Positions 19,380-53,303 of a stretch of 64,000 nucleotides of DNA are shown one piece after another. The stretch's first letter is position 1. Each line of letters begins with the position of its first letter. A program made the position numbers and the translations under genes. Source of the DNA: an uncultured Mycoplasmatota bacterium (lineage in GTDB: Bacteria; Bacillota_I; Bacilli_A; RF39; UBA660); contig CALEBF010000012.1 in NCBI GenBank assembly GCA_937944975.1, positions 103,418 through 167,417 on the forward strand, read 5' to 3'. Below the pieces are notes generated by a model. The model was given only the letters and a program-made list of their open reading frames with translations. It ran no database searches and had not been told where the DNA came from.

Positions 19380-21452
19380 CTAAAAAACGATAGAAAAATT
19401 CCCGTCCGTATCAGTTCGAATCACTTTACTACCATAGTGACGATATCTTTCGATTACTTCAGTTGCAGGATGGCCATAATGATTGTTACGTCCGACAGAA
19501 ATAAGTGCATATTTGGGTCGTATATTACGAACAAATTCATTTGTAGAACTCGTCTTTGACCCATGATGTCCTACTTTTAATATATCCACATTAGGAAGAT
19601 TATATTCCCTTAACAACCATTTTTCACCCATTGCATCTACATCTCCCATCCATAGAATATGTTTTTTTCTGATTTTCGTGTAGACAATTAAACTATTTCT
19701 GTTTTCTTCCATATCATATCTGGAAAATATATAAAATTTGTGACAGTTTAATGTGATTTTATGATTTGTACACGAAACGATAGGAATACTTTTTTCATTT
19801 GCTCTTATTTTAATTTCCTTTTCTATTTCGCTATCAGAGGCATGGTTCATTAAAATAGTTCCTACAGGTATTTTTTCTAACAGTGACAACACATTCCCAG
19901 CATGATCATAGTCTCCATGCGTTAAAATTAACGTATGAATGCGCGTCACTCCAACTGCTTTAAAATAAGGAACGAGTACTGATTGGGCCATGTCGTAATC
20001 TTCTCTTCTCTTTTGCCAAGACTCTGTTTTATACGATAACTTTCCTCCGGTATCAATCATCACAGCTTCTTTCGAATGAGGTAAAATCAGAAAAGATGCA
20101 TCTCCTTGTCCAACATCTATCATATGAAATTGAGCAAATGGCGAGAACCACAATTTCATATAGTGATAGCCCAATAAAAGAGGCAATAAAACAATGCCAT
20201 AGTATCGCTGCGTACGAATAAGATGTATATGGTAAAAAAACATAACATAATAAATGACAATATAACATATTGTTGGTTTTGCAAACCAAACGATCCCGAT
20301 ATCTACTTCCGCACACATCAATAATAGTGATTGAAATATCGTTTGTAGAATTTGAAAAATATGCATCATCGGAGAAAATACGATTGTAATAAGTGCACAC
20401 GGAAATAAAATCATTGTTACAATAGGTACGAAAATAATATTAAAAATTGGAGACAAGAAGTTAAGCTCATAAAAGTGAAACATACTAATAGGAGTGCTTA
20501 CGAAAAAAATAAAAATAGGTAGTTTCCACCACATTCCCTTTTGAAATTGCAAAAATCCCCCATAATAAATGAGAAAAAAACTAATTCCAAAGCTGAATTG
20601 AAATCCGATATGATAAATAATCCAAGGGTTTATAAAAAGAACAATGGCAAGTGTCATACAAAATAAATCAAGTGTACTACACTCCATTTGAAAATAATCT
20701 TTGATCGACTGTAACAGAAAAAAAATAAAAACACGAAGAACTGAGGGTGTAAAACCGACAACTATAGAGTATCCTGAAACAATAAATAGAATAACTGCAT
20801 TTTGAACATTTTTATTTTTGCATGTAATCAAATATCGTATCCCGGCAATCAACACGTGAAAATGCAATCCAGAGACGGAAAAAAGATGTTGAATTCCGAT
20901 TTTCTGAATAGCATCTTTCTCCTTTTCTTCTACTCCGTCTAGATTTCCGAACAAAAAAGCTTGTAGATATGGTGTGTTAGACTTATACAAATTGTCATAT
21001 ATTTTCTCTTTTACCTTATAAAAGAATGAAGGTGGATTCGGATGAATTTTGTAACTTGTCCCCTCAATTTGATAAAAGATTCCTATCGAACGCAAATAAT
21101 CACGATATTGGAACAACATTTTATTTCCATTTTTAGAAGGTATATTACGTATTCCTGAAACCGTTACTTTCATTCCTAGGCACACGTTCTCTTTCAAATC
21201 ATTCTTTTCTTCTTTTGATGAAATTGTAATATAAAATTGATATTTCTTCTCCTTTGTTTTTAAGGTGCCCTTCCATAAATTCCCATCGATTTCATACGAC
21301 ATCAGAATTCCTGTTTCCTCTATTTTCTGATCACGATCTATTAAATGTGTTTCATGGCGTACTAAAATACCATATACAATAGAAATCAATAAGATACACC
21401 ATATATATTTACTATATCGTGATATATGGTGCGATTTTTTGGTAAGAGGCAT
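19380..21452 (-). CDS. comEC: DNA internalization-related competence protein ComEC/Rec2
   Basis: 690 aa; N-terminal polytopic competence domain, C-terminal metallo-beta-lactamase fold (HxHxDH-like LTHGDYDHAG, GHHGSKTS); overlaps comEA end. Confidence 0.85.
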   Translation of the reverse strand: MPLTKKSHHISRYSKYIWCILLISIVYGILVRHETHLIDRDQKIEETGILMSYEIDGNLWKGTLKTKEKKYQFYITISSKEEKNDLKENVCLGMKVTVSGIRNIPSKNGNKMLFQYRDYLRSIGIFYQIEGTSYKIHPNPPSFFYKVKEKIYDNLYKSNTPYLQAFLFGNLDGVEEKEKDAIQKIGIQHLFSVSGLHFHVLIAGIRYLITCKNKNVQNAVILFIVSGYSIVVGFTPSVLRVFIFFLLQSIKDYFQMECSTLDLFCMTLAIVLFINPWIIYHIGFQFSFGISFFLIYYGGFLQFQKGMWWKLPIFIFFVSTPISMFHFYELNFLSPIFNIIFVPIVTMILFPCALITIVFSPMMHIFQILQTIFQSLLLMCAEVDIGIVWFAKPTICYIVIYYVMFFYHIHLIRTQRYYGIVLLPLLLGYHYMKLWFSPFAQFHMIDVGQGDASFLILPHSKEAVMIDTGGKLSYKTESWQKRREDYDMAQSVLVPYFKAVGVTRIHTLILTHGDYDHAGNVLSLLEKIPVGTILMNHASDSEIEKEIKIRANEKSIPIVSCTNHKITLNCHKFYIFSRYDMEENRNSLIVYTKIRKKHILWMGDVDAMGEKWLLREYNLPNVDILKVGHHGSKTSSTNEFVRNIRPKYALISVGRNNHYGHPATEVIERYRHYGSKVIRTDTDGNFSIVF

Positions 21453-22077
21453 CTCCTATTCCTTTCACTTCTTTTAGTTCCTCTATATTCTGAAATCCAT
21501 TGTGACTTTCTCGGTACGAGATAATATCCTGCGCTTTCTTCTCCCCAATTCCTGGAAGTTCCATCAACTCTTCTAAAGTTGCCTGGTTGAGAGAAATCGG
21601 AAAGGTTACTTGTTTTTCTTCTTGTTTGTTTTCATTCGACTCTTTTTCATTTGTGATCGTATTTTCTTTTTCGATGCAAACATCATTTTCTAATTTAGGA
21701 CAAACACAAGTTTGATCAATCACTTTAACACTGGTGTCACCTTCTTTTTGTTCTGCAATTTCTGCCTGCGTATAGATAATGACAACCATCTCATCTTTCA
21801 ATTTTTTACTCAAGTTAATATATTCTGTCGAAGCATCTGTTCTAAGTCCTCCTGCTTTTTCTATCAGTTTCATGACAGTCATATTCTCTTCACATTCATA
21901 TACACCTGGATTTATCACTGCACCTTTTAGATCAACATAGATCTTTTTCTTTTCTTCTTCTTTTTTTTCGATTGGTTCTAAAACGACATCATCTTCTGTT
22001 TCCGCGTTCACAGTGAAATATACACATGAAAATATAGAGATCAATAAAACTACCGCAATAATTATTTTCTTCTTCAT
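21412..22077 (-). CDS. comEA: competence protein ComEA (helix-hairpin-helix DNA receptor)
   Basis: Start ATG 22077 (MKKKIIIAVVLLISIF signal anchor) with GGTGG RBS preferred over track start 22200; C-terminal tandem HhH: ISLNQATLEELMELPGIGEKKAQDIISYRE...GIG. Confidence 0.8.
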   Translation of the reverse strand: MKKKIIIAVVLLISIFSCVYFTVNAETEDDVVLEPIEKKEEEKKKIYVDLKGAVINPGVYECEENMTVMKLIEKAGGLRTDASTEYINLSKKLKDEMVVIIYTQAEIAEQKEGDTSVKVIDQTCVCPKLENDVCIEKENTITNEKESNENKQEEKQVTFPISLNQATLEELMELPGIGEKKAQDIISYRESHNGFQNIEELKEVKGIGDASYQKIAPYITI

Positions 22078-22150
22078 ACTACCACCTATCAATATTGTTC
22101 TATACGATCGCTTTTTTTCCTTCCACGAAAAAAAGATTCCGAAGAATCTT

Positions 22151-23320
22151 TTAAACTTTAATCTTTTGTCGTTTTGTTTCAATATGGATTCGTTGCACAA
22201 GTGCTAAAGATATAATGAGTGATATCGTAAAGGATCCTCCATAACTTAAGAATGGATTTGGTACTCCAGTTAATGGCATAATTCCAAATAGTCCACCTAA
22301 ATTGACAAAAATATGCATGAAAATATAGGTAGCAACCCCAAGGCATATATAACGTCCTCTAAGTGTATTAGCTCTCGAAGATAACGATAGAATACGCTTT
22401 AATATAATAATGTATCCAAGGAAAATAATCAAAGACTTGAAAAATCCTTGTTCTTCTACGATAATCGCAAAAACACTATCAGTATGTGGTTCTGGAATAT
22501 AAGAATACTTTTGCTTACTTTTCCCGCCCCCTAAACCGAATGCGCCTCCATCATTGATTGCTATAAATCCGTTACAAGTTTGATATCCTCCTTCTTCGTA
22601 ATTGCTACAAGGGTTAAAGAAATTAAACCGGTCCATCTGTTCAGGAGACAAGATATATCCTTTTGTACTTAATAATACAAGGCCAGCAAATATAGCTAGT
22701 ACAAAAAGAAATATAAACGTTTTAATTTTGTCAATTCTCAAGATTGGACTTCCCAGAAACATGACAAAGAAAATCATAAAAAGAATGAACATAGTACCGA
22801 AGTCCTTTTGCAAAAAAACGATTGCAGGATAAGAAAGACCAACGAATAAAATAATTCCAATCATGTCATAATGGTTAATTTTCTTGTTTCGAAGTCTCGC
22901 ATAAAATCGTTCAAATAAAAGAGCTAGACAGACAATCATCACTGGTTTTGCAAATTCACTCGGCTGTACTCTACCGATAATCGGAAGAGCAATCCAGTTA
23001 CGGCTCCCACGATGGTCTGTTCCATACATACTCAAATACAATAACAATCCTAAAATGGCAATAAATCCGAGAAGTGCGAGTGGCTTGTATTTTTTTGTAT
23101 CATAACAAAAAATAATAATACTAACGACAAGCCCTGCCATCAACATTTTCAATTGTTGGTAAAAATAGTAATATAATGGTGCTTCTGAGGTAACTGCTTC
23201 GCTACTAGAAGCTGTAACGATATTGAGTAAACCGAATACGAATAAGGCAATACTAATAAATAGTAAGGGTTTATCCATATCCTGCACAATATGTTTTATG
23301 TTCCTAACTACCTTCCTCAT
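22151..23320 (-). CDS. SEDS-family peptidoglycan glycosyltransferase (FtsW/RodA/SpoVE)
   Basis: 10-TM profile, conserved GGxxKxxxxxPEPHTDSVFA and SYGGSxxI motifs. Confidence 0.8.
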   Translation of the reverse strand: MRKVVRNIKHIVQDMDKPLLFISIALFVFGLLNIVTASSSEAVTSEAPLYYYFYQQLKMLMAGLVVSIIIFCYDTKKYKPLALLGFIAILGLLLYLSMYGTDHRGSRNWIALPIIGRVQPSEFAKPVMIVCLALLFERFYARLRNKKINHYDMIGIILFVGLSYPAIVFLQKDFGTMFILFMIFFVMFLGSPILRIDKIKTFIFLFVLAIFAGLVLLSTKGYILSPEQMDRFNFFNPCSNYEEGGYQTCNGFIAINDGGAFGLGGGKSKQKYSYIPEPHTDSVFAIIVEEQGFFKSLIIFLGYIIILKRILSLSSRANTLRGRYICLGVATYIFMHIFVNLGGLFGIMPLTGVPNPFLSYGGSFTISLIISLALVQRIHIETKRQKIKV

Positions 23321-24267: not shown

Positions 24268-26196
24268 ATGAAAACACAATATAAAATGATTGTTTTAGTT
24301 GCACTCGCTTGCATTTGCTCTATTTTAATTTACTATAAAGTAGATAAAGCAAAGCCTGCAAAATTTCAAGAAGATTTAATAGCAAAACAAGAAAAGTTAG
24401 AAAACAAATTTTTAGAAAAAACAAATTATACGATGGAACATCCTAATATTATTTTGGATCCATACGATATTTCTCCACTTACCGCACTTGTCATATTTGA
24501 AACAAGTGACCTTACGGCGCCTGAAGTGACTATCAAAGGTAAAGATGAAAACACGACATTTACAAAGACTTTTACACCGTCGAAAAAGCACATCTTACCT
24601 ATCTACGGATTATATCCAGACACAAATAACGAAGTGACAATCGAATGTAATGGTCAAAAGAATGTCTTCTATATTAAGACTGACCCACTCCCAGAAGATT
24701 TCGCAATTCCTACAAAAGTGGAAAGCAATAAAGAAGAACTTGGAAACGACCTATATTTTGTTACACCATCTTCCAATGGATATGTCGCTGCATACGATGT
24801 CAATGGAGACGTCCGTTGGTATCTTACCGAATCTTTTACTTGGGATATTCAGAGACTTAATAATGGAAATATTTTATTAAGTAGTAATCGCCTCATCAAT
24901 CCACCTTATTACATGACAGGCCTTATGGAAATGGATTTACTTGGAAAAGTTTACTATGAATATACTCTACCTGGCGGATATCATCACGATGTATTCGAAC
25001 TGGAAAATGGAAACTTAATCATTGCAAGTGACAACTTTGAAAACGGTACGGTCGAAGATTATATCGTCGAGATGGATCGCAAAACAGGCGAAATTGTCAA
25101 GACAATTGATCTTACAAAAATTCTACCACAGGATGAAGGTCGCAATGTAAATGCTACTGATTACGATTGGTTCCATAACAACTCAGTCTGGTATGATGCA
25201 GCAACAAATTCACTTACCCTATCTGGTCGTCATCAAGACGCCGTTGTCAATTTAGATTATTCGACAAATGAAATCAACTGGATTGTCGGATCGAAAGAAG
25301 GATGGAGCAAAAAAATGCAAAAATACTTCTTTGAACCAGATGAGAATACTGAGTTTCAATGGTCACAACACGCTGCAATGATTTTACCAAACGGCAACTT
25401 ATTCTTATTCGATAATGGAAATAATCGTTCTAAAACTGAAGAAAATGCAGTAAGTGCCGAAAACAATTACAGTCGCGGTGTAATCTATCAATTAGATAAA
25501 GAAAATAAAACGATTCATCAAGTATGGCAATACGGAAAAGAACGTGGTAGTGAATTCTATTCTCCATACATTTCCGACGTTGATTACTTTGATGAAGAGC
25601 ACTATTTGATTCATTCTGGAGGTATTTCAAAAACAGAAGATGGAAAGCCAAACAACGAGCCTGCCGGATTGCAAAAATCTAGTTCTATGAATTCAATTAC
25701 AACAGAAAGGAAAGATGGCCAAGTTATCTTTGAAATGCAATTGCCTGGAAACTTCTATCGTGCTGAAAAAATGAGTCTATATGCGAATAATGTATTTAAA
25801 ACAGGAAAAGGAACTACACTTGGTAGCATGAGAGAAACAAAGGCAAGTGGAAAACAAACCTTGTGTCTCATCAATAAATCGATCAATGATACTTATAAAT
25901 CACACGATATCAAAATTATAAAAGAAAAAGATCGTCTCGCAGTAACAGGAACATTTAAAAAATCAGATAAAGTAGAAATTATTCTGGATAATACATTCAA
26001 TAAAAAAGTATATGATATGATTATCTCTAAAAAACCTTATACTGCAATGTGCGTTGACATATTCAATGAAGAAGAAAAAGAAAATGGTATTTCTGTTACA
26101 AAGTACATCAACGATGAAGGATTAAAAGGAAAATTCTACATTTATCTTAAAATTAATGGAACTGTTTACGATACAGATCTATACGTAACTTACTAG
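24268..26196 (+). CDS. arylsulfate sulfotransferase (ASST) family protein, membrane-anchored/secreted
   Basis: N-terminal signal anchor; long beta-propeller-like body with ASST-type repeats (WYLTESF...NGN, HHD, WFHNNSV...). Confidence 0.55.
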   Translation: MKTQYKMIVLVALACICSILIYYKVDKAKPAKFQEDLIAKQEKLENKFLEKTNYTMEHPNIILDPYDISPLTALVIFETSDLTAPEVTIKGKDENTTFTKTFTPSKKHILPIYGLYPDTNNEVTIECNGQKNVFYIKTDPLPEDFAIPTKVESNKEELGNDLYFVTPSSNGYVAAYDVNGDVRWYLTESFTWDIQRLNNGNILLSSNRLINPPYYMTGLMEMDLLGKVYYEYTLPGGYHHDVFELENGNLIIASDNFENGTVEDYIVEMDRKTGEIVKTIDLTKILPQDEGRNVNATDYDWFHNNSVWYDAATNSLTLSGRHQDAVVNLDYSTNEINWIVGSKEGWSKKMQKYFFEPDENTEFQWSQHAAMILPNGNLFLFDNGNNRSKTEENAVSAENNYSRGVIYQLDKENKTIHQVWQYGKERGSEFYSPYISDVDYFDEEHYLIHSGGISKTEDGKPNNEPAGLQKSSSMNSITTERKDGQVIFEMQLPGNFYRAEKMSLYANNVFKTGKGTTLGSMRETKASGKQTLCLINKSINDTYKSHDIKIIKEKDRLAVTGTFKKSDKVEIILDNTFNKKVYDMIISKKPYTAMCVDIFNEEEKENGISVTKYINDEGLKGKFYIYLKINGTVYDTDLYVTY

Positions 26197-26270
26197 AGAA
26201 CACTTGTTCTCTTTTCTTTTGACACAAATTATGATATATGCTAGAATACATTTAGAAAGAAGGAGCATTT

Positions 26271-27059
26271 ATGAAAATTAATAATGTGGCATGGAAAAAA
26301 CTTGCAACTATCAGTTTTGTTTTCATAGCAGGTGTTTATTCTGGAAGAATTATCGAAAGAATCCATCAAGCACCACAATCGACACAGCTTATAACCAATA
26401 CTGACAAAAGTCAAGCGGAAGCAGAAGAAACTACATATTATTTTACCACGCAAGAAAGAGCAATTTTAAAATTTGATGAAAATGGAGAACCTATATATTC
26501 TGATTGGTCGCCTATAAACGATTTTAAAAAAGTAACTAATAACACAATGGCATATGCAAATGACACAACAAAAGTTTATATAAAAAGCAACAACAGTAAC
26601 GAACTAGCATCAGAATTAGCAACTGGCCACTCCATTAGAAATGGAATTTTATATCAAGGTGAAACAGCAATACAAAGTTTAGCTGAACCGAATGACTTCG
26701 ACAAATTAAAAATTGCAATCGATCGACAACTTGTACAATATCAAGAAAGAACATGGGACACTTCTAAAAACGATTGGTCAGAATGGTCTGAGCGTAAATT
26801 TATTACACAAACGACATACTTAAAGAATACAGATAAAAAACAATATCGTATTGTTTTTTATACAAATCAAAAGGATAATCAAGTCAATTGGTTTGATTTA
26901 TCTCAGTTTGAAAACAGTTCTTTTAAAAATTGTTCACTGTATGAAGGAGAAACCCCTGTTCCAATGGATATGAGTAATTATAATCCAGATAACTCAAGCC
27001 ATGTATCATTTGATGATGTTATCTATGATGATGCTAAAACATATTCAGTCCATCATTAA
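26271..27059 (+). CDS. signal-anchored extracytoplasmic protein of unknown function
   Basis: N-terminal TM (LATISFVFIAGVYSG), Trp/Asn-rich body; AGGAG RBS. Confidence 0.5.
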   Translation: MKINNVAWKKLATISFVFIAGVYSGRIIERIHQAPQSTQLITNTDKSQAEAEETTYYFTTQERAILKFDENGEPIYSDWSPINDFKKVTNNTMAYANDTTKVYIKSNNSNELASELATGHSIRNGILYQGETAIQSLAEPNDFDKLKIAIDRQLVQYQERTWDTSKNDWSEWSERKFITQTTYLKNTDKKQYRIVFYTNQKDNQVNWFDLSQFENSSFKNCSLYEGETPVPMDMSNYNPDNSSHVSFDDVIYDDAKTYSVHH

Positions 27060-29387: not shown

Positions 29388-29456
29388 TTTCTCACCTCTT
29401 TTGTTATAGCGATATCATCATATCACACTTCTTGTAAATTGCAAATAAAAAAGGCA

Positions 29457-30044
29457 TTATTTTCTACCTTTTACTTTTTTAGGATGTTCAGCTCCTAAGT
29501 TGCAATCTATTTCGCGTAGTATAATATCCCTAGTCGTGATTAATTTATCCCTTTTCTTTTTTAAACTCCCTATTTTTTTCTGTTGTCTTCGAATTGTAAG
29601 CACACTCTCACATAGACATTTTGTTGATATCAATACTAACGAACTAGAAATAATAGATGCTCCTCGATAAATCGCACATATGCTACAGATAGGAGGTAAG
29701 AGATAAGATAAGTTAATATAAGTTAAATGGATTTGATTAACAACAGAATTTTCTTTTCGGCCATCTTTATAAACTTCTTTTTTTCTTTCACTCATGGCAT
29801 AGCTTGTCGTAAGCGCTATCACGCTTAAACCTTTTAAAGCAACTGCAGTTGAAGGAATCGTGTTGAAATCTTGTAAAACGCAATAGCCAGTTGCAAGGAC
29901 AGTTGCTGTTAAAACACTATAGTATGTCAATTGAAGTTTACGTTCTTCTTTTAACAATTCCTTATATAATTCAATATTTTTTTCATATTTTTTTATATTA
30001 CGATCTAAAATAAGATTTTCTTCCTTTGATTTGTTTTGATCCAT
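29457..30044 (-). CDS. small coiled-coil membrane protein, tandem paralog 1 of 3 (unknown family)
   Basis: ATG 30044 (MDQNKSKEE) with GAGGTGA RBS; shares ATGYxVLxDFN, LKGL, HLTYINL, YRGASIISS-LVLIST motifs with the two upstream paralogs. Confidence 0.6.
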   Translation of the reverse strand: MDQNKSKEENLILDRNIKKYEKNIELYKELLKEERKLQLTYYSVLTATVLATGYCVLQDFNTIPSTAVALKGLSVIALTTSYAMSERKKEVYKDGRKENSVVNQIHLTYINLSYLLPPICSICAIYRGASIISSSLVLISTKCLCESVLTIRRQQKKIGSLKKKRDKLITTRDIILREIDCNLGAEHPKKVKGRK

Positions 30045-30167
30045 ATTTTTCACCTCGACTGGTGTATATTATACCATGTATTCTTTTCACTTACAATTGT
30101 ATCCTATTATAGGATAACATATAAATAAAGAAGATGTAGATACAAAAAAATTAATTCATCACTTGAA

Positions 30168-30734
30168 TCAATTTTTAATTTTTTGTTTCTCCTGATCGAT
30201 TCCCAAACTTTCTAAAATTCTTTTCTTATCTTCTTTCTTTCTGTTAATGATTTCCTGTTTCTCTTTTTCAAGTTCATTTATATTTCTTATAGTAAGTGCG
30301 TTTAAACACATATTATTTGTACTTATCAGTACTAATAAGCTACTCATAATAGATGCCCCACGATTAATTGCATATAAACTGCAAACAGGAGCTAAAAGTA
30401 ATGGCAAATTAATGTAAGTTAAATGTATTTTACTTCTTACTGTTTTTTCCTTCCAAAGTTTCTTGGCTTTACCATTTGTGTTCAACGCATACCATGTTAT
30501 AATTGAAACTGCACCTAATCCCTTTATGGAAATTGAAACTGGAGAACTAATATTAAAATCACTTAACACAAAATAACCAGTTGCTAATAAATTACTAGCA
30601 AAAAAACTGCAGACAATTATCTTCCTTTTTTTACTCTGATCTAATACACCTTCAAACGCTCTAATTTCTTCTTCCGTTTTTTTTAATTCGCAATATAATC
30701 TTTCTTGCTCTTCCCTAGTATTATCTTGTCTCAC
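30168..30734 (-). CDS. small coiled-coil membrane protein, tandem paralog 2 of 3
   Basis: GTG start 30734 with GAGGTGA RBS; motifs ATGYFVLSDFN, IKGLGAVSI, HLTYINL, NRGASIMSSLLVLIST. Confidence 0.6.
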   Translation of the reverse strand: MRQDNTREEQERLYCELKKTEEEIRAFEGVLDQSKKRKIIVCSFFASNLLATGYFVLSDFNISSPVSISIKGLGAVSIITWYALNTNGKAKKLWKEKTVRSKIHLTYINLPLLLAPVCSLYAINRGASIMSSLLVLISTNNMCLNALTIRNINELEKEKQEIINRKKEDKKRILESLGIDQEKQKIKN

Positions 30735-31119
30735 AGTTTCACCTCAATTGATGTTTACTATATCATATGTGTTTTTTCATGTCAATCCAAATCTATCTTG
30801 TCCCTTTGATCTGTATTAACTATTACGCCTTCTTATGGATTCAAGCTTTTATAACTTTCTTTAATTAAAATTATATCATTACTTTTTTCAGTGTTGAAGT
30901 AATCTTTGAGATCTTATAAATCATCGCTACAATTAATATAGCTTACATCAGAGGATAATTTTTGATTGGATTTATCTGATTCCTTATTCCAGCTACTTAC
31001 TATTTCCATTCCAGACATATCATATTTGTTGTTTAAATATGATATAGTTTCTTTTATGTTTACCCATGAAAAAACACCTCTAAAGTTCTTTCTAAATAAA
31101 TTTTATCATATTTCTATAA

Positions 31120-31764
31120 TTATTTAGTGAGAACTTTAAAGGTATTATAATCTTTTCTACTTTTTTTCTGACATACGGGTTCAATATTTAATGATTCCTC
31201 ACTGTCCTGTTCTAATTCTGAACATAATAATCTTTCCCTTAATTCAATACAATTCTTAATTTTTTCATTTGACCTCTTAATAGTCTTGTATTGTTTTTTT
31301 ATTTCTACAATTGTATTACACAAAAAATTTGATGCCCACAGTACTAAACCACTACTTAAAATTGATGCACCATTATATATTGCCCCTGCAACACATAATG
31401 ATTCTAAGAAAAAAGAAGTATTGATATATGTAAAACGAAACTTATGTGATGATGTTTGTTCTATTGTTGATTTTTTTTGAGCCTCTATTTTTTTGACTTT
31501 CAAAACATAACGCGTACCTACTGCAATAGCACTTAATCCCTTCAAAGTGATAGTTGTTGGAGTTACTAATTTGAAATCATTGCATATGCAATAGCCGAGT
31601 GACAACGAAGCAAAAGCTAAAATAGTATACGTTATTTGTTGTTCCCTACGATCCTTTTCAAGCTCTATTTGATCTGAAATGATCATTTTTTCTAAATTTT
31701 TCAACACCATCTTTCGATGGTTTTGTTGCTGTGACCTATATTCATTACTATTACTTTGATTCAT
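31120..31764 (-). CDS. small coiled-coil membrane protein, tandem paralog 3 of 3
   Basis: ATG 31764 (MNQSNSNE) with GAGGTGA RBS; motifs LGYCICNDFK, LKGLSAIAV, FTYINT, YNGASILSSGLVLWAS; shares 21-nt 5' leader AGTAAACATCAATTGAGGTGA with paralog 2. Confidence 0.6.
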   Translation of the reverse strand: MNQSNSNEYRSQQQNHRKMVLKNLEKMIISDQIELEKDRREQQITYTILAFASLSLGYCICNDFKLVTPTTITLKGLSAIAVGTRYVLKVKKIEAQKKSTIEQTSSHKFRFTYINTSFFLESLCVAGAIYNGASILSSGLVLWASNFLCNTIVEIKKQYKTIKRSNEKIKNCIELRERLLCSELEQDSEESLNIEPVCQKKSRKDYNTFKVLTK

Positions 31765-31818
31765 AATAATCACCTCAATTGATGTTTACTTTAACATCAA
31801 TACATTTCTTTGTCAAAT

Positions 31819-33528
31819 TTAATTCACTAATATTAATTGACCATCTTTTTTTACTTGGTATATTTTACTTTTCTGGACTTTCCCTTCTAATGAATCTGGA
31901 ACCTGTCTAAAGTATATATACTCATATCTATCTATTTTGGTTTGATCAAATATTTCTTCAAATGTTATGTGATTTAAATTTTCTTTAGACGTTATATTGA
32001 GATAATATCTAACTTGTCCCTGTTCAGTTTCAAGCAGCAAAGGATCAAAAATCATCACATCGTATTTTTTAGCAAGTTCACCAACTTGATACCACTCTTC
32101 TTCTAATTTATTTTCTCTCTGATCGATCCAATTTAAAACTTGATTATATGGCACAAACAAGCAAAAAATACAAATAAAAATAATATGCTCTCTTGTTGTT
32201 TTTAATTGTGTGAATATTAAAATCATAAAAGCAATAAATACACCATTCATAAAAATTACAATATAGCGTTCATAAGAAGATAGCCGTATCGCTTCATATG
32301 TATCAAATTGAAATAAATACATTAATAACAAGCCAATCGGATATGCAATTGCTCCGCTAATCATGAGAATATTAAAATATTTTAACTTTTTACTATATTT
32401 TAACTTCTGCTTTTGATAAATTCCATAAGCTACTAATATTAGAAGAATGATGATACTGATATAATCTAAAAAAACAGGACTAGTAACAATTTTTAATTGA
32501 AAAAAACTTGTAAAAAACTTAGAGATAATGCCTATTTGCGTTTCAGTCCATTGAAGTGTTATCAAATTTAAGATTTGCTCAAAAGAAATGGCATTTTGAT
32601 GTTGCAAAGGAGTGTGAAACAAAGATAGACAAATACTCCAGCTTAATCGTGATAAAACAACAGCACTCGCCAACATAAAAAATGTTTCCCATTTTCCTAT
32701 TTTTTTTACTTTGATGCAAATCGCCCAATATGCTAAGGCAATCAACGAGAAAAATAGTCCAATATCTTTTAGTAACGTAAGTGTAATAAGTGCTAATACT
32801 AAATTAGCTAGATCAAACCGACTCATACCTTTCTTTATTCTTTGCATCATCCACACCATAATATAGGCAAATAAAACACCGAGCAAGCCATCAACATAAA
32901 TACAATTATAATAACTAATAAATAGCACGGTTGGTACAGCGAGTACAAAAAACAAAGACAGGAAAAAGTTTTTTTTCGTCAATTTTAAAAATGGCAATAT
33001 GAGAGATGCTCCAAACAAATAAAAAGTTATATATAAAATACTCTCGCTAAAAGTTCCACAAATTGACATAAACGTGTATTGCAACAGTGATATAGCAGGT
33101 GGATAAGATGGGTACATAATATAATCCATATGAAACGATAATTGGTGAGAATTCCACATTGCTTTTACAACACTACCCCAATGCTTATATTCATCAATAT
33201 AAGCAATGTGCTTGTTAAAATTAAAAAGTACGATTACTAAAAAAATACAAAAATAAAGCCATAACGTTGGATCATTTATATATTGTTTTAATACTGTCTT
33301 AAAGTTGTGACGAATTTTATAAATTGCATAACATAAAAAACAGAGAAAACATACAAGAAGTGAAAAAAACGCAACTTGTAGGTTATACATCCCCCACACA
33401 TACATCCATAACATAATAAAAAAGAAAGAAAAAGGAATAGTATCTTTCCATTCCTTTCCAAAAGTCACACCAAATGAAAAGGAAAATAAAATTAGAAAGA
33501 AAAATATGAGTAAAAAACAACCTATCAT
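31819..33528 (-). CDS. large polytopic membrane protein, putative GT-C fold glycosyltransferase (YfhO/ArnT/PMT-like)
   Basis: 569 aa, >10 TM, acidic DEY motif in first predicted loop (IAYIDEYKHWG), C-terminal ~100-aa soluble domain; follows a GT2 gene. Confidence 0.45.
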   Translation of the reverse strand: MIGCFLLIFFFLILFSFSFGVTFGKEWKDTIPFSFFFIMLWMYVWGMYNLQVAFFSLLVCFLCFLCYAIYKIRHNFKTVLKQYINDPTLWLYFCIFLVIVLFNFNKHIAYIDEYKHWGSVVKAMWNSHQLSFHMDYIMYPSYPPAISLLQYTFMSICGTFSESILYITFYLFGASLILPFLKLTKKNFFLSLFFVLAVPTVLFISYYNCIYVDGLLGVLFAYIMVWMMQRIKKGMSRFDLANLVLALITLTLLKDIGLFFSLIALAYWAICIKVKKIGKWETFFMLASAVVLSRLSWSICLSLFHTPLQHQNAISFEQILNLITLQWTETQIGIISKFFTSFFQLKIVTSPVFLDYISIIILLILVAYGIYQKQKLKYSKKLKYFNILMISGAIAYPIGLLLMYLFQFDTYEAIRLSSYERYIVIFMNGVFIAFMILIFTQLKTTREHIIFICIFCLFVPYNQVLNWIDQRENKLEEEWYQVGELAKKYDVMIFDPLLLETEQGQVRYYLNITSKENLNHITFEEIFDQTKIDRYEYIYFRQVPDSLEGKVQKSKIYQVKKDGQLILVN

Positions 33529-33532
33529 ATCA

Positions 33533-34225
33533 TCATCTCTTTCCGTTCCACATAATTTTTAAAATTCTCATAGAATCTCGCACAGGTCTAAATGTTGACG
33601 CTTTTTTTTCTTTATAGTAAATTGTTTGGATTGTACACTCTCTTATTTCAATTTTCTTAGTTACCAATTCAATCAAAACCATTAGTGCATATTCAAAACG
33701 TTCCCCTTTTATTTTGCATAACTCCGGAAGCAATTTTATCGGAAACACACGAAGACCAGATTGTGTATCATGAATTTTTTTAGAATAAAGAAAAGAAAAA
33801 ATAGCATTTGTCAATCCATTTGCAAATTTTCTTGTCATTGGTACTTGTTTTGCATTAAAATCCCGAACACCTAAAACAGGAGTTGTCGGAGATTCTAAAA
33901 ATAACTGAGAAACTTTTATCACATCGTCAATTGCATGCTGCCAATCTGCATCCACTGTAATAACTCCTATACACGGAAATTTTTGTTTTAGAATAAACGA
34001 GTACGCTTTTTTTAAGCTAAAACCTTGCCCTCGATTTACTGAATGATGTAATAATATTACATCATCTTTATTTTTTAATTTCGTAAACATAGGCTCACTG
34101 TCCATATGACTCCCATCATTTACAATGATTATTTTTAGAAAGCCTAACTTTTCTAATTCTTCCACGTAAGGGATAAACCTTTTTGGGGGATTATAGGCGG
34201 GAATTATAACAATAAGATCTTTCAT
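33533..34225 (-). CDS. family 2 glycosyltransferase, polyprenyl-phosphate sugar synthase-like (GtrB/DPM1-type, soluble)
   Basis: IIPAYNP...VNDGS...D-A-D (VDADWQH) GT-A fold motifs; 230 aa with no C-terminal TM. Confidence 0.75.
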   Translation of the reverse strand: MKDLIVIIPAYNPPKRFIPYVEELEKLGFLKIIIVNDGSHMDSEPMFTKLKNKDDVILLHHSVNRGQGFSLKKAYSFILKQKFPCIGVITVDADWQHAIDDVIKVSQLFLESPTTPVLGVRDFNAKQVPMTRKFANGLTNAIFSFLYSKKIHDTQSGLRVFPIKLLPELCKIKGERFEYALMVLIELVTKKIEIRECTIQTIYYKEKKASTFRPVRDSMRILKIMWNGKR

Positions 34226-34226
34226 T

Positions 34227-34922
34227 TTAAAGTTTTCTTACACTTTCTATATCGATTGTAAGATATGGACGAATATCCATCCCATAAGAATTAGCACCTA
34301 TAGTGACTATTCCGAAAAATCCTTTTTTTGTCGTATGATTAAAGAAGAAATTCCAACTAAACGCTCCATTAGATTCAAGCGATCTTGTATAAAATCCTCT
34401 AGTATAATAAGGGGAACCAGAATATGTAAACTTATAATCATAATCTGCAATCCAATCCCACCCAATATAATCACCTGTTGGAGGAAAAGTTGCACCCGGA
34501 TTTTTCATTAAAATTAGATTAGTTAGTTCTTCTTTACTGATTAATGTAATATTATAATAATTGGCATATCCTCCTGCTCTTTCAATACTTGATTTCCAAT
34601 TGCTGGTTAACGCTACTAAATTATAATAGACCATAGTATTTTCAAATACTGTTGATGGTGTAGTATTATATGTTGTCCCAACCGCACTATCCGAAAGCAA
34701 TTTTAAATAATCATCATGCACTTCCACTACATGGAATGTAGGCGATAATCCAACAACTTCAACTTGATCACCAATTTCATAAGTTACTGTTTTATGCGCC
34801 GTAATATTAAAGTTTAAAGACGTAGTCAGAACTGAATATCCTATCGTTAAAAAGAGAAGCGCAGAAAAAACAATTCCATATATCAGCTTTTGATTTGTTT
34901 TTCTTTTCCTTATTTTTCTCAT
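34227..34922 (-). CDS. secreted Tyr/Asn-rich protein with N-terminal IGY-anchor motif (paralog family with 13404..14381)
   Basis: Basic N-terminus (KIRKRKTNQK) then ...FLTIGYSVLTTSLNFNIT...; first gene of operon with GT2 and GT-C genes (2-nt gap to GT2). Confidence 0.55.
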   Translation of the reverse strand: MRKIRKRKTNQKLIYGIVFSALLFLTIGYSVLTTSLNFNITAHKTVTYEIGDQVEVVGLSPTFHVVEVHDDYLKLLSDSAVGTTYNTTPSTVFENTMVYYNLVALTSNWKSSIERAGGYANYYNITLISKEELTNLILMKNPGATFPPTGDYIGWDWIADYDYKFTYSGSPYYTRGFYTRSLESNGAFSWNFFFNHTTKKGFFGIVTIGANSYGMDIRPYLTIDIESVRKL

Positions 34923-35016
34923 TGTTTTGCTCTCCTTTGATATCTTTACATCCTCATTATAATTTCATTTTAATTGAAATTGATTTACTTGTCAATTCTT
35001 TGCAACAGCCTATCAA

Positions 35017-42231: not shown

Positions 42232-43056
42232 CTATAATACGAATAACGTCCATAAAATAACGATAATTCCCATAGCAACACGATACCACATAAAAATTTT
42301 GAAATCGTGTTTTTTAATATATTTCATTAAAAATTCGATACATAAAAGTCCCGTAATAAATGCTACTAAGATACCAATTGCAAAAATTCCTACATTAGAT
42401 GCAATCAGCGTCACTGTGTTATCTTTGAGCAGGGTTAAGAAAGAGGCGCCAAAGATAACTGGAGCGGATAGATAGAATGAAAATTTTGCTGCATCCTCAC
42501 GATTCAACTTCATTGCGCGTGCTGCAGAAATCGTCGTTCCACTTCTCGAGAAACCTGGAATTAAAGCAAATACTTGAGCACATCCGATTACGAGAGCATC
42601 CGTCCATTTCATGTCCTCAAATGATTTTTTCTGCTTAAAATAGACATCTGCTAGATAGATGATAATTCCCATAAAAATAAGAGCACAAGCGATCAAAATA
42701 AAGTTTCCTCGAAGCAGTTCTTCAATCGTCTCTTCAAATAAAACACCAAAAATAGCCGCTGGAATCGTCGCGATTAAGATAAACCACATCAATTTCCCAT
42801 CTGTCGATTTTGGCTTTGTAAACCCACTGATTAAAATCTTCCAGAAATCTTTAAAAAAATAAATCAAAATGGCAAGTAACGTTCCTAAATGTAATGCGAT
42901 ATCAAACGTCATTGAAATATTACTTCCAATTTCACTTCCAATTCCAAAAACATCTCTAAAAATAATAAGATGAGCCGAAGAAGAAATCGGTAAAAATTCT
43001 GCGATCCCTTGTACGATTCCTAAAATAATCACTTCTATCCAAAGCATGTTATTCAT
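42232..43056 (-). CDS. uppP: undecaprenyl-diphosphate phosphatase UppP/BacA
   Basis: Conserved SSSAHL and PGFSRSGTTISAARA motifs, 8-TM profile. Confidence 0.85.
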   Translation of the reverse strand: MNNMLWIEVIILGIVQGIAEFLPISSSAHLIIFRDVFGIGSEIGSNISMTFDIALHLGTLLAILIYFFKDFWKILISGFTKPKSTDGKLMWFILIATIPAAIFGVLFEETIEELLRGNFILIACALIFMGIIIYLADVYFKQKKSFEDMKWTDALVIGCAQVFALIPGFSRSGTTISAARAMKLNREDAAKFSFYLSAPVIFGASFLTLLKDNTVTLIASNVGIFAIGILVAFITGLLCIEFLMKYIKKHDFKIFMWYRVAMGIIVILWTLFVL

Positions 43057-43924
43057 CTCCTAACTTATAGGCAATGACTCCACCAATTGCCATAAAAATA
43101 ATTCCTATTAAAACTTGTGGTATAGAAAATACTAAAGTTTCTACCTCATTATAAGTAGAAATTGGAATAGCGAGGATACTTGCAAAAATGAATCCTAATA
43201 CTCCATAATATGTCTTTGATTCAAACTTTTTCAGTAAAAATTCGATGATTTTAGAAATGAGCACAATTCCTACTAACACACCGACACCAAAGACGCCTGC
43301 AATCACAATATTTTCTCCTAAATTTTCAAACTTGGTAAGAGCCTTCACAATCTTTAGAATTGGATAGTAATATCCGAGTAACATCAATACTAAAGAACCA
43401 CTTACTCCTGGGATTACCATCGTTGCAGCAGCAATCACTCCGACGCAAAATAGAATCAGGTATCCCCAAAGATCTAGTCCATTCAAATTCACTTTTGCGG
43501 TTGTTCCAAATAATTGGTCTGCAAATGCCATCACGATAACGAGCGAAAAAGTCATGAGAAGAATGATCCAACTAGAGATTTCTTTTCCCTCCTTCTTCCC
43601 TTTGACTTTGCGATATAACATCGGAATACCTCCAATTACGAGCCCCACGAAAAATAGTGTCGTCGGAATTGGAAAATGCTCGTACGAGTAATCGATCACG
43701 CGACTCATCGATAAAATAGCAAGGCAAAGTCCAATCGCGATTGGTAATAAGAACTTAATATTTTCTTTTAAGTTAGAGAAAAAGTGACTGATTGCTCCAA
43801 TAAAACGTTCGTAAATTCCGAGTGTTAAAGCAAGTGTACCACCACTGACTCCTGGAATAATGTTAGCGATTCCCATGATAAAACCTTTTACTCCAAGAAT
43901 GATATTTTCCTTTATTTTCTTCAT
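43049..43924 (-). CDS. DUF368-like membrane protein (candidate undecaprenyl-phosphate translocase family)
   Basis: Internal duplication with IPGVSGGT / IPGVSGS motifs, ~8 TM; 8-nt overlap with uppP start. Confidence 0.5.
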   Translation of the reverse strand: MKKIKENIILGVKGFIMGIANIIPGVSGGTLALTLGIYERFIGAISHFFSNLKENIKFLLPIAIGLCLAILSMSRVIDYSYEHFPIPTTLFFVGLVIGGIPMLYRKVKGKKEGKEISSWIILLMTFSLVIVMAFADQLFGTTAKVNLNGLDLWGYLILFCVGVIAAATMVIPGVSGSLVLMLLGYYYPILKIVKALTKFENLGENIVIAGVFGVGVLVGIVLISKIIEFLLKKFESKTYYGVLGFIFASILAIPISTYNEVETLVFSIPQVLIGIIFMAIGGVIAYKLGDE

Positions 43925-43980: not shown

Positions 43981-46900
43981 CTATTTTATTTCACGATAAA
44001 TTCCATCTATAATAGAATACAAATAACATTTGATCTCTTTGTTCGTAATCTTTTTTAAATACGCCCTGTACCCATTCAATTGGTCATCGTAACTTTTAGA
44101 ATCGATCTTCTTTAATTTATAATCGACGATCAAGAATGTGTGTTCCGTTTCGATCATTAAATCGATCATACCATGCCTGTCCTCATCAGTAAATTCATAT
44201 TCTCGGTAAATCTCAATTGGTTGAATATCTTTTAAGAACGCCACTTGAAAAAATTGCTCTATTAATTTTGTGATCGATGAATCAATGTGATGTTCTTGAT
44301 AAAGTGATTCTCTATTATCCCAATCGATCAATTCTAACAGTCTATGAAATTCCGTTCCTTTTTCCATCATTTCTCTTTCTTTTAAATCCGGTAACGTACT
44401 TTTCTTGGAATATCTTCCTCTTTGGCGTTCTTCTTTTTTTCCTTCGTAGTGAAAGTATGTAAACGGACTTGTAACTTCGCCTTCTCTTTCTATCGTTGGT
44501 ATCTTATCATAATCGTGAGTACAAGCGGTATCATCTAAGCTTACACTGCGACAATAAGGTTTCAATGCATTCTTAATCGATATCAACATATCGAGAAAGC
44601 TTCGATATCGAAGTTTGTTCGTATCTGTCGTATCATCAATTTCTTGCTCGTAATCTTGTAGAGGTGCTACCATGATCATCTTTTCTTTGGCACGTGTCGT
44701 CGCAACATAAAATAGACGAATCTTTTCAGAGATATTTTTCTCATAATATTCTTCTTTTACGAGTGTTTTTAAAATCGTATCTTTGAGTCCTTCCTTCCAT
44801 ACAGGTAGGACAAATCCGTACGTCTGATTTAACGAGTAACGATCTTTAAAGTCTTCCTTAGAAAATGTCTTATATAGACCACTATAATAGCAAAGTGGAA
44901 ACTCCAGTCCTTTCGACTTATGAATCGTCATCAATTGCACTGCATTCTGCGTTTCTTTTCCCATTTGAAACTGAACGTCGATTTTCTCCTCGTATGCGGT
45001 TTTAAAGTAATCTGTAAACTGTGGCAAATCGTATCCAAGTTTCTCTAAAGACTGTGCGAGATTCAGACAATATTCCATCTTCGCATGAGTTAGAGCAACA
45101 TCTGTCTTCGTCATTAACTTTTCATAAAAGTGAAATGTCTCCAAAATTTTTCTTAAGATTTGTTCTAAAGAAAGTGTCGGTAACAACTGATATACTTCTC
45201 GTATGTTAGATAAAGCTTCCACCAATGATTCTCTTTCTTTCCATGCTTGATAGAAAGAGATATTCTTTTCTTTTGCATCTAAAAACAATGAAAAGATTTC
45301 TTCATCTTGGTAGGAAAAGAGAAAACTACGAAGTAATCCCATCACGTGATGACGGAACGTCGTACTGTTGTAATCTTTTTTTTGCATACAAGTTAAAATC
45401 GTAAGGATACTATGCAAGACAAAGATCTCATCAGAAATCACAAATCCATCTTCTTTATGAATATTCATTGGTATTTGTAAATATGTAAATATCTTTTTAT
45501 ATAGTTCGAAATTCGTCTTACGGTCCATTAATATCGTAATATCACGATATTCTAAATCTCTAATTTTTCCCTCTTTCATATCGAACACTGGATAGTGCTC
45601 TTTTATTTTTTTTGCAATGTCAGAAGCGATTAAAAACGCTTCGATCTCTTCTTTTCGATAACTGCGATCGAGATAAGCATAGTCTAAAACTTCCAACTGA
45701 TGATCAACTTCACACGCACCTTTTTCTTCGTATGAAGTGTTTCCGAAGATCATCTCGTGCCCTTCTGTATAGTTGACTCCTCCCAATCTCTCATTCATCC
45801 ACCGTTCGAACAAGAAGTTGATCGAAGATAAGACTTCTCTTCTCGAACGAAAGTTTTTCATAAGATCGATCTTACAACCAACATTAGGATCTTGATAAGA
45901 TTTATACTTTTCCATAAAAAGCGATGGATTGGCATTACGGAAACTATAGATCGATTGTTTCACATCTCCTACCATATAGACATTATTGTTGGCGATGAGA
46001 GAAATAAAGTAATCTCCAATATCGTTCGTATCTTGATATTCGTCGATCATAATTTCCTTGATCTTCGACTGATACTGTTTTCGAATATCCGGATACTTTT
46101 CGAAGAGTATCACTCCAAAACGAGTAATATCGCTAAATTCAAATACTTGATATTTTTTCTTTAGTGCCATGAGTTTTTCTTCAAATCGTTTTAAAATCTT
46201 GATTACAGCTTTCGCACTCTCTTTCGTGCTTCTATATTCATCGATCATAGACTGTGCGCTTTCGTAATCACATAACTCTTTTATCGCTTGATAATATTTC
46301 TTGAGAGGATCGTAATACTTTTTAACTTCTTCCTTTTCTTCATCCTCTACTTTCTTACTCGTCGTCATGCTCGGTAACGACTTTGGTAATAATGCTACGA
46401 TCTCATCGTAAGTATTCACATGTTCTAGAGGTTCTAAAATCGTATACAACTTTTCATACCAGTCTCTTAAAACTTCGTTATGTATGACATCTTCCATCTG
46501 CTCTAAGATTCTAAGCATAGAATCTTTCTCTCTTAGAATTACCTTTGTATAATCATGAATTAGTTTCTCTTCGAAAGAAGGATTATAATGTGTCGACTCA
46601 TAAGTATCTAAAAAGTCATCTTTCTTTTGAATCGTCTCTAATTTACGATACATTGATAGCATCGCCGTCTGCATCTTTTGATCACTTTTCAAAGTAAAAG
46701 TATCCATGAATGCTAGAAAGCATGGATCTTCTTCCTCGAACAATTCTCTAAACACGTCATCCATCAATTCTTTTTTCTTACTTTCGATCATGACGCTATC
46801 GCAAATATTTACATCTTTTTCAAGTCCTAATAGATAGTGATACTTTTTGACGAGGGCTAAACTATAGCTATCAAATGTACAAATATCTGCTGTATCTAGT

Positions 46901-47160: not shown

Positions 47161-47161
47161 C

Positions 47162-52565: not shown

Positions 52566-53303
52566 TTACTCCTCCTCTATCTTTAGCTTTGAAAAGTAAC
52601 GATCGATATAGTGATCATGTGCTTTCAAATTCAAGTCTAAATCAAATGGTTGAAATACGACATCCGGATACTTCGTATGGATCATCTCCATCGCGAGGTA
52701 TTGTAGTAGTTCTGGGTTTCGTACTAATACAGGTCCAATTAAATAAGTTCCATAAAAATGATTCTTGTGTACCCCTTCTCTTTTACTGTTCGGATACATT
52801 CCAATTCCTCGCTTTACAGAAAATATCGTAGCGTCATTATTTCTCATCACAGTACACTGATTTTGAAATCCGATGACTGGGGTCTTTAAAAAGTCACACG
52901 TGAAATAACATTCATCGATCATGCGCATCGGTTCTTCTTTGATTTCGTAATCAAACGCACCAAGGCACGCTAACTCCGTATCATCTTTTTGAATCCACTT
53001 CTTGCCAAAAAAATTAAGGGCGCTTCCCGTAATCAAGAAAAACGTACCATTTTCGATTGCCGATAAGATATCATCTTTATATTTCATCAAATGAGTTAAG
53101 ACAAACTTTTCATTTTCTTCCGTTCCTGCTCCAATATAGATAAGATCAAACTTGGAAACATCGATCTCATCATCGACGGAAAGAAAATGAATAACGGGGT
53201 CGATCCCTTGTGTTTCTAATTGTCTTTTTAATGCATTTACATTCCCATGTTCACCATACAAATTTAAAATATCATAATATAGATGTGCGATATGAAATTC
53301 CAT
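52566..53303 (-). CDS. gatD: lipid II isoglutaminyl synthase glutaminase subunit GatD (CobB/CobQ-like GATase)
   Basis: Type-1 glutamine amidotransferase fold directly downstream of murT, 1-nt junction. Confidence 0.75.
   Translation of the reverse strand: MEFHIAHLYYDILNLYGEHGNVNALKRQLETQGIDPVIHFLSVDDEIDVSKFDLIYIGAGTEENEKFVLTHLMKYKDDILSAIENGTFFLITGSALNFFGKKWIQKDDTELACLGAFDYEIKEEPMRMIDECYFTCDFLKTPVIGFQNQCTVMRNNDATIFSVKRGIGMYPNSKREGVHKNHFYGTYLIGPVLVRNPELLQYLAMEMIHTKYPDVVFQPFDLDLNLKAHDHYIDRYFSKLKIEEE

Follow-up and report, generated by a model that had tools for sequence, protein, structure and literature searches.

A variable surface protein co-encoded with a GT2 and a GT-C-like membrane protein: a candidate glycosylation cassette in an uncultured gut bacterium

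We investigated a three-gene cluster in a 64,000-nucleotide stretch of DNA (the window) from an uncultured Mycoplasmatota bacterium (GenBank assembly GCA_937944975.1, contig CALEBF010000012.1, positions 103,418 to 167,417). The genes, denoted A, B, and C, encode a membrane-anchored surface protein, a family 2 glycosyltransferase (GT2), and a polytopic membrane protein resembling glycosyltransferases of fold C (GT-C), respectively. An original prediction, made from the sequence alone, had read them as an operon for two-step glycosylation across the membrane. We consider it quite likely that B and C constitute a two-step lipid-linked pathway. The fuller reading, in which A, B, and C form a protein glycosylation cassette similar to the Pgf and TfpW systems, with a lipid-carrier route and A as the acceptor, has in our estimate a probability of about 45%. 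Because A is strain-variable and exposed, such a cassette would yield a glycosylated variable surface antigen or adhesin.

A, B, and C form one operon

Genes A (34922..34227; 231 amino acids, with an N-terminal membrane anchor), B (34225..33533; 230 amino acids, GT2), and C (33528..31819; 569 amino acids, polytopic) are three consecutive open reading frames (ORFs) in the ORF list, all on the minus strand. The coordinates and the order of secreted protein, GT2, and polytopic protein are as originally predicted, with the strand now corrected to minus. The junctions, read directly in the sequence, leave 1 nt between A and B and 4 nt between B and C, in place of the 2-5 nt reported before. The best promoter-like site of the region (TTGACA-17 nt-TAAAAT, 34995..34967, minus strand, 11 of 12 consensus matches; promoter-like sites here are matches to the consensus alone) lies ∼45 nt upstream of the start of A, with a ribosome-binding site, AAAGGAGAG, in between. 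Neither a site scan nor reading of the sequence revealed a terminator-like site between A, B, and C, and the gene downstream of C has its own promoter-like site (31816..31788). Given the gaps of 1 and 4 nt, the single strong promoter-like site, and the lack of an internal terminator, A-B-C is one operon. The upstream neighbor encodes an SMC protein; downstream are genes for three paralogous small membrane proteins, followed by an ABC-F ATPase gene and a YlmH-like gene. The order A-GT2-GT-C is repeated in a sister species, and four further lineages have a C homolog encoded next to a short GT2 and a secreted protein, so the arrangement is not due to chance.

B is a predicted undecaprenyl-phosphate sugar synthase

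B matches PF00535 (E = 6.6e-10) and carries a DDGS-like motif (VNDGS, residues 35-39), a DxD motif (D92-A-D94, with D92 and D94 invariant), and the motif DTQSGLR. Its best NCBIfam matches (AglJ, PpgS, ArnC, and a dolichyl-phosphate hexose transferase) are all polyprenyl-phosphate sugar synthases, with scores that do not reach the family cut-offs (AglJ: 56.7 bits vs. 325; PpgS: 51.8 vs. 370; ArnC: 21.6 vs. 529). Only a weaker match, to the PgaC/IcaA N-terminal region, departs from the polyprenyl type. When a profile of B and eleven relatives was searched against the PDB, the top matches were Pyrococcus DPMS (1.6e-16), ArnC (9e-16 to 1e-14), and GtrB/sll0501 (3e-13), spanning positions 4-171 of the 189 in the profile, and chondroitin synthase scored 1.1e-15 over the N-terminal half of the profile only. 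B is therefore best described as a predicted undecaprenyl-phosphate sugar synthase of the GtrB/DPM1/ArnC type.

There is no hydrophobic segment in B (the highest 19-residue Kyte-Doolittle mean is 1.15) and neither C-terminal transmembrane (TM) helices nor a GtrA/DPMS TM anchor domain; its C-terminal helix is basic and amphipathic. The description of B as a GtrB/DPM1-like GT2 without a TM segment thus agrees with the PF00535 match, the polyprenyl-phosphate GT2s among its best relatives, and the hydropathy profile. B shares 36-42% identity with the catalytic part of 350-400-residue relatives that are GT2-GtrA fusions, and the alignment stops exactly where the GtrA/DPMS TM domain (PF04138) of these relatives begins, from which B reads as a truncated member of the fusion family that has lost its GtrA domain. 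Hidden Markov models (HMMs) that we built from 33 fused GtrA domains and three DUF2304 proteins detected no GtrA-like or DUF2304-like ORF at E ≤ 10 among all ORFs of the window, and no such partner was found in the N-terminal extra helices of C or in the three downstream paralogs. The statement that the operon has no GtrA-like gene can consequently be extended to the whole 64 kb.

C probably belongs to an unannotated GT-C family

C has no match in Pfam or NCBIfam (E ≤ 0.1 for both) or among PDB sequences, and ten sampled members of its family have no significant match in Pfam, and none to the YfhO, PMT_2, or ArnT families. The HMM classes suggested originally (YfhO, PMT_2, ArnT, and DUF6056) therefore had to be abandoned; the family is one without a Pfam or NCBIfam model. 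It is large: a word-index search returned just 11 homologs of C, and a profile search of 1.84 billion representatives returned 5351 proteins at E ≤ 1e-3 and 2402 at E ≤ 1e-30, mostly 600-640 amino acids long and matched over the full length.

An AlphaFold 2 model of C built from 11 sequences (pLDDT 81, pTM 0.84) was compared with solved structures by Foldseek. GT-C enzymes take the first 17 places, with a probability of 0.94-1.0 (0.82 for a duplicate AglB entry, 3waj), E-values of 1.7e-3 to 0.2, and TM-scores of ∼0.37, followed by transporters at a probability below 0.1. In the model, then, the likeness of C to GT-C enzymes is at the fold level only. Eleven residues are invariant in 31 diverse members of the family (L50, E113, W117, Y142, P144, Y151, D213, L250, K254, R421, and Y422), and D112, H116, and P143 are conserved in at least 90% of them. 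Helices taken from the model and oriented by the positive-inside rule give a topology of ∼14 TM segments, three of which precede the helix equivalent to the canonical TM1 of GT-C enzymes, with short K/R-rich loops inside. Predicted to lie outside are the loop 104-161, which is the first large outer loop and holds the acidic motif D112-E113, together with D213, K254, R421, the loop 304-355, and an α/β domain (469-569), which places all invariant charged residues and the C-terminal domain on the outer face. These features agree with what had been noted before, namely a polytopic protein with an acidic first-loop motif and a C-terminal soluble domain. The GT-C fold matches, together with the conserved acidic motif on the outer face, also favor the earlier label "GT-C-like", and C is probably a GT-C-fold membrane glycosyltransferase of an unannotated family. 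Phase variation of C, for which cluster products of 531 and 572 amino acids might have spoken, was rejected; the DNA of loci L093 and L094 is identical there, and the difference lies in the start-codon call.

GT2 and C homologs occur as pairs

We surveyed the neighbors of C homologs in 80 genome loci, mostly from Clostridia, Bacilli, and "Tenericutes" metagenome-assembled genomes (MAGs), with a few others. A B homolog is the next gene upstream of the C homolog in 35 of the 80 loci and the next gene downstream in four, and lies within 5 kb without being the immediate neighbor in nine, i.e., it adjoins the C homolog in 39 loci and is no more than 5 kb away in 48. Because a B homolog so often adjoins a C homolog, we conclude that the GT2 and the C-type GT-C work as a pair, and the coupling that the original prediction proposed for one operon is seen family-wide. 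The paired GT2s of the wider family are mostly GT2-GtrA fusions of 350-400 amino acids.

Pfam families were also assigned to 123 genes that flank wider-family loci. GT2, NAD-dependent epimerases, CapD-like Polysacc_synt_2, and UDP-GlcNAc 2-epimerase are the commonest, together with GT1, acyltransferase_3, Wzy_C, LCP, and DUF2304, and the 25 most frequent families include no pilin or sortase substrate. Overall, the C family resembles the GT-C component of the systems reviewed in PMC8035078, which decorate glycans outside the cytoplasm. Three wider-family loci encode a short GT2 and a DUF2304 protein (1e-25; L013:12484-12822, L017:14029-14379, and L043:63-416) beside the C-family GT-C, inside polysaccharide clusters. 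We take DUF2304 to be the family of GacJ, which would make these loci a GacI/GacJ-type arrangement next to a C-family GT-C.

A surface protein accompanies the closest relatives of the pair

The closest relatives of C (31-63% identity), which together with C we refer to as the window subclade, are all paired with a short GT2 (∼220-234 amino acids as called, up to 259 in longest-ORF calls) and with a gene for an exported protein, not with polysaccharide genes. They fall into five lineages. Lineage i comprises the window and the sister species, from human-gut metagenomes (L001-5 and L093-97), with the order SMC - A - GT2 - C. More than 150 blocks in the assembly index contain the sister species. 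In lineage ii (L009, a mouse-gut Bacilli MAG), the domain corresponding to the ectodomain of A (the A-like domain) follows a type IV prepilin N-terminus (KKGFTLLELLAV; N_methyl, 6e-7) and is encoded directly upstream of GT2-C. Lineage iii (L010, L011, L089, and L092) has a sortase gene, two or three A-like proteins, a polytopic protein of 534-544 amino acids, and GT2-C; the A-like proteins have a Sec signal and end in VPSTG, a TM segment, and a Lys-rich tail, with sortase signals and a sortase gene both present in the L010, L011, and L089 clusters. In lineage iv (L006), GT2-C is followed by a plain type IV pilin of 136 amino acids (N_methyl, 2e-7), and in lineage v (L007) by a secreted protein of 434 amino acids with VPST, a TM segment, and a Lys tail and then by an LCP-PASTA protein; no sortase gene was seen on the L007 contig. 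A scan of metagenome contigs for more lineages of the subclade yielded only three loci, all from species already known.

A itself has a basic N-terminus, one TM helix (residues ∼13-31), an invariant juxtamembrane motif, GYSVLTTSLNFNITAHK, and an ectodomain that terminates in the invariant YGMDIRPYLTIDI. The composition of the ectodomain (10.8% Thr, 9.1% Tyr, 8.1% Ser, and 6.5% Asn) makes it Thr/Tyr/Ser-rich, and the earlier label "Tyr/Asn-rich" has been replaced accordingly; the "IGY motif" of the same description is just the end of the TM helix. Ser/Thr-rich stretches are short only, being the invariant SVLTTSLNFNIT just outside the membrane and TTYNTTPST. Candidate sites of modification are SVLTTSLNFNITAHK and the conserved residues Ser96, Thr106, and Thr179. 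A has no match in Pfam or NCBIfam, and it is not a type IV pilin, with neither a match to PF07963 nor a G/FTLIE motif.

The A-like family is small, with 12 clusters among 5.8 billion proteins, and every homolog of known context is 0-3 genes away from a short GT2 and a C homolog. An A-like profile found members in lineages i-iii alone, and none in lineages iv-v or in 77 wider-family loci. Across these three lineages, A-like proteins are displayed in three modes, by an N-terminal TM anchor, by a VPSTG sortase signal, or by fusion to a type IV prepilin. A link of A to DUF6273 (PF19789) or C-type-lectin-like proteins, suggested by the sequence pattern, was kept as a lead but played no part in the classification: A-like proteins have no Pfam match and no PDB profile match, and a weak DUF6273 match (E = 0.016) occurs solely in the L007 neighbor, which is unrelated to them.

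Two further observations concern these proteins. The first 44 codons of A (window 34791-34922) are nearly invariant across orthologs that are otherwise ∼55% identical, with the pattern MRKIRKRKTN..LIYGIVFSA.LFLT.GYSVLTTSLNFNITAHK, and an unrelated protein in L010 (L010:12770-13124) has a similar start, ..LCILTVGYAAFSTNLNLSARGNIG. This N-terminus presumably resembles signal peptides of the SipW/TasA type (GTWAAFND), a likeness backed by no NCBIfam match; the 44 residues may act as an export or anchoring signal specific to the lineage, or contain the glycosylation site. The 534-544-residue polytopic protein of the sortase clusters (L010:3508-5127, L011:3172-4776, and L089/L090:2968-4600) has an N-terminal YDDA motif, no Pfam or PDB match, and a probability of 6% against the C family in hhalign; it is a possible second GT-C-like enzyme. 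An additional short GT2 gene (9794-10477) is present in L089.

The operon lies in a variable island

The 3′ two-thirds of A, B, C, and the genes for the three downstream paralogs make up a variable island (29452..34485) between conserved flanks that include the SMC and ABC-F genes. Between the window and the sister species (comparison loci include L003, L096, and L097), protein identity is 96% for SMC and ThiF, 57-60% for A, 61-62% for B, and 62% for C. By blastn, the flanks are 85-93% identical and B-C 68.5%, with nothing aligned over 29452-31810. Identity breaks off within gene A, past codon ∼145 or ∼81 according to the allele compared, and GC content is 28-30% in the island vs. ∼35% elsewhere. 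Two alleles of A within the sister species are 100% identical over residues 1-45, 66% over residues 46-130, and 48% from residue 131 to the end, and the same two strains are 97% identical in the GT2 and 96% in the GT-C despite their divergent A. Such a pattern, with the N-terminus conserved and the exposed part hypervariable, would be expected for an antigen or adhesin at the surface but not for an enzyme subunit.

The three downstream genes, D1 (31773/31764..31120), D2 (30734..30168), and D3 (30053..29457), all on the minus strand, are tandem paralogs (mutual matches of 1e-19 to 1e-33) encoding membrane proteins of 188-217 amino acids that have coiled-coil ends and some four helices of weak hydrophobicity; each gene has its own promoter-like site. 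They have no Pfam match, and no homolog was found in other lineages; the sister species has one D homolog of 187 amino acids in the same position (split into 88 and 97 amino acids in L001 and L005), plus an unrelated gene for 298 amino acids. D1-D3 are thus part of the island, and their role in the glycosylation system is uncertain.

Other genes in the window

A gene for BacA/UppP, an undecaprenyl-diphosphate phosphatase (1e-85), adjoins a gene of the PF04018/DUF368 "undecaprenyl phosphate translocase-like" family (5e-47; 42232-43924, minus strand). These lipid-carrier recycling genes lie ∼8 kb upstream of the operon, outside the variable island, and are conserved in the sister species. Elsewhere in the window are competence genes (ComEC and ComEA-like, 19380-22200, minus strand), a gene for a secreted arylsulfotransferase (ASST, 1e-101) followed by one for a 262-residue protein without matches (24268-27059, plus strand), an AddAB-like helicase-nuclease pair (43981-49552, minus strand), and MurT/GatD-like peptidoglycan amidation genes (52566-54637, minus strand). 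The MurT/GatD-like and other genes of the window indicate that the organism is a walled Firmicute and not a mollicute.

Discussion

The route that we propose would begin on the cytoplasmic face, where B, by its homology, would use a nucleotide sugar to load undecaprenyl phosphate with one sugar while attached to the membrane, presumably via its basic amphipathic C-terminal helix. The undecaprenyl-phosphate-linked sugar would then be flipped to the outer face, a step at which the GtrA domain fused to most relatives of B has been lost here. C would bind the lipid-linked sugar in a groove on the outer face, as suggested by its fold, conserved residues, and topology, with D112/E113 as the putative catalytic or acceptor-activating pair and K254 and R421 as candidate phosphate ligands, and would move the sugar onto an extracytoplasmic acceptor. 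Gene linkage points to the co-encoded surface protein A as that acceptor, and a possible site is the invariant Ser/Thr-rich segment SVLTTSLNFNIT just outside the membrane or a conserved Ser or Thr of the ectodomain.

That A is a dedicated substrate, or at least a glycosylation-linked surface component, had been suggested from the operon. Comparative genomics clearly strengthens this suggestion: all five lineages keep a surface-protein gene beside the pair, anchoring occurs in three ways, and the genes vary together in one island. It is still something we infer, and a wall polymer is a serious rival as the acceptor. Several observations weigh against A as the acceptor. Gene linkage, to begin with, does not by itself tell a substrate from a partner or a bystander, and the neighbor counts were obtained from simple ORF calls and phmmer with one GT2 sequence. 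The structure model of A is poor (pLDDT 59), so that no acceptor loop can be indicated in it, and A lacks the extended disordered poly-Ser/Thr tract that serves Pgf and PgtC2 as acceptor. No flippase gene was found in the window. Furthermore, the rest of the C family is in cell-wall polysaccharide loci, so the ancestral acceptor of the family was probably a glycan.

The last point leads to the alternative that B and C add a single sugar to a wall glycopolymer (teichoic acid or wall polysaccharide), in the way of CsbB/YfhO, GtlA/GtlB, CsdAB, and GacI/GacL, A being merely a co-transcribed variable surface protein; the island would then vary because A and the sugar decoration are both targets of phage or host immunity. 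Sugar decorations are typically strain-variable traits, characterized GT-A/GT-C pairs of Firmicutes mostly have glycopolymer acceptors (PMC8035078), the wider C family sits among epimerase, CapD-like, GT1/GT2, Wzy_C, LCP, and DUF2304 genes, and in L007 an LCP-PASTA gene is found two genes downstream. The window subclade, however, has no adjacent polysaccharide-synthesis gene and a surface-protein gene adjacent in all five lineages, the 12-cluster A-like family has never been found apart from the pair, and the gap between A and B is 1 nt. We regard a wall-polymer acceptor as possible, if on the unlikely side.

A second alternative keeps A in the pathway in a different capacity, either as a lectin-like or acceptor-recognition partner that guides the GT-C to its substrate or as a surface module with affinity for the sugar that B and C attach. 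The exposed half of A has diverged to 48% identity in strains that retain 96-97% identity in B and C, which would not be expected of an obligate enzyme subunit. Relatives, moreover, hold two or three A-like copies per pair and display them at a distance from the membrane enzyme, either wall-anchored by sortase or as part of a pilin, and the DUF6273 link that would favor a lectin-like role fails by sequence and depends on a model with a pLDDT of 59. We therefore consider a partner role improbable. Even less credible, given the GT-C enzymes at the head of the structural matches, is a C that is no glycosyltransferase at all but a transporter or a polymerase/ligase-like membrane protein with a mechanistically meaningless GT2 neighbor, for which one could cite the lack of a sequence match to any curated family or solved structure and the modest Foldseek values (E just 1.7e-3 to 0.2, TM-scores ∼0.37).

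With A as the acceptor, the nearest functional analog would be the Pgf cluster of Streptococcus mutans, in which the GT-A enzyme PgfS and the GT-C enzymes PgfM1/PgfM2, clustered with PgfE, glycosylate the adhesins Cnm/CnaB/CbpA, which are sortase-anchored and encoded in the same cluster (PMC12041528). S. pyogenes and S. pneumoniae have the related GtrB/PgtC2 pathway; PgfM1, PgfM2, and PgtC2 carry a YfhO domain, and the acceptors are Ser/Thr-rich disordered tails (PMC12041528). Shared with the window, on our reading, are a GT-A synthase of an undecaprenyl-phosphate sugar, a GT-C acting outside the membrane, a Firmicute host, and a co-encoded surface protein, and the sortase-anchored substrates there have a counterpart in the sortase-anchored A-like proteins of L010, L011, and L089. 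The systems differ in that C belongs to no Pfam family, whereas the Pgf GT-Cs are YfhO proteins, and in that the GT2 of the window has neither a TM segment nor a GtrA domain; there is also no epimerase gene here, A lacks a long Ser/Thr-rich disordered tract, and its glycosylation is a proposal.

A second comparison is with TfpW, a GT-C enzyme that glycosylates the group IV pilin of Pseudomonas aeruginosa (bioRxiv 10.1101/2020.04.19.049825). There, too, a GT-C is genetically tied to an exposed, allele-variable surface subunit, the subclade has a true pilin or a pilin fusion in L006 and L009, and the conserved N-terminus and hypervariable exposed part of A mirror pilin alleles. The tfpW gene, which encodes an arabinosyltransferase, is said to lie beside the pilin gene (pilA). 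However, A of the window has no prepilin motif, the donor would come via a GT2 here and by a decaprenyl-phosphate-arabinose route for TfpW, the host here is Gram-positive, and the two systems are unrelated in sequence.

The two-step logic and the short GT2 also recall GacI/GacL and the Gtr systems (PMC8035078, PMC11127046). Transmembrane glycosylation of Gram-positive wall polymers is carried out by CsbB/GtcA/YfhO, GtlA/GtlB, CsdAB/CD/EF with CflA, and GacI/J/K/L, and several GT-Cs of such systems (GltB, YkoS, and CsdB) likewise have no Pfam domain (PMC8035078). GacI and PpgS are short GT2s as well, and the wider C family is found in comparable loci; the window, in contrast, has no GtrA, Wzx, or DUF2304 partner and no adjacent glycopolymer genes, and its subclade is tied to surface-protein genes. 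In the GtrA-GtrB-Gtr(type) systems that glucosylate O antigen in Shigella and Salmonella, the likeness lies in the relationship of B to GtrB (3e-13, sll0501), in the GT-C partner, and in the GtrA domain fused to most relatives of B. There is no GtrA here, however, B is without the C-terminal pair of TM helices that GtrB has, and the acceptor is not O antigen.

The locus stands apart from these systems in three respects: its GT-C family is unannotated, its GT2 has lost the GtrA domain, and its candidate targets form a new, hypervariable family. We may tentatively, and with more doubt than conviction, go further and picture a large unannotated GT-C family of which one subclade was recruited from glycan decoration to the dedicated glycosylation of hypervariable, possibly lectin-like surface modules; these would be displayed interchangeably in gut Bacilli (membrane-anchored, sortase-anchored, or as modular type IV pilins), the pair and its target forming a swappable antigenic cassette without a GtrA-type flippase.

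Protein glycosylation by GT-C enzymes in Firmicutes has only recently been established (Pgf and GtrB/PgtC2) and has so far been tied to YfhO-type enzymes and Ser/Thr-rich tails. The locus described here points to a second, unannotated GT-C family with thousands of members, and to a compact three-gene cassette of a human-gut bacterium in which an enzyme pair and a candidate target are inherited together and vary together. The cassette is a test case for how a GT-C chooses between protein and glycan acceptors and for surface variation in gut commensals, e.g., against phage or immunoglobulin A. Whichever the acceptor, a model of the C family would improve the annotation of many genomes of Clostridia and Bacilli.

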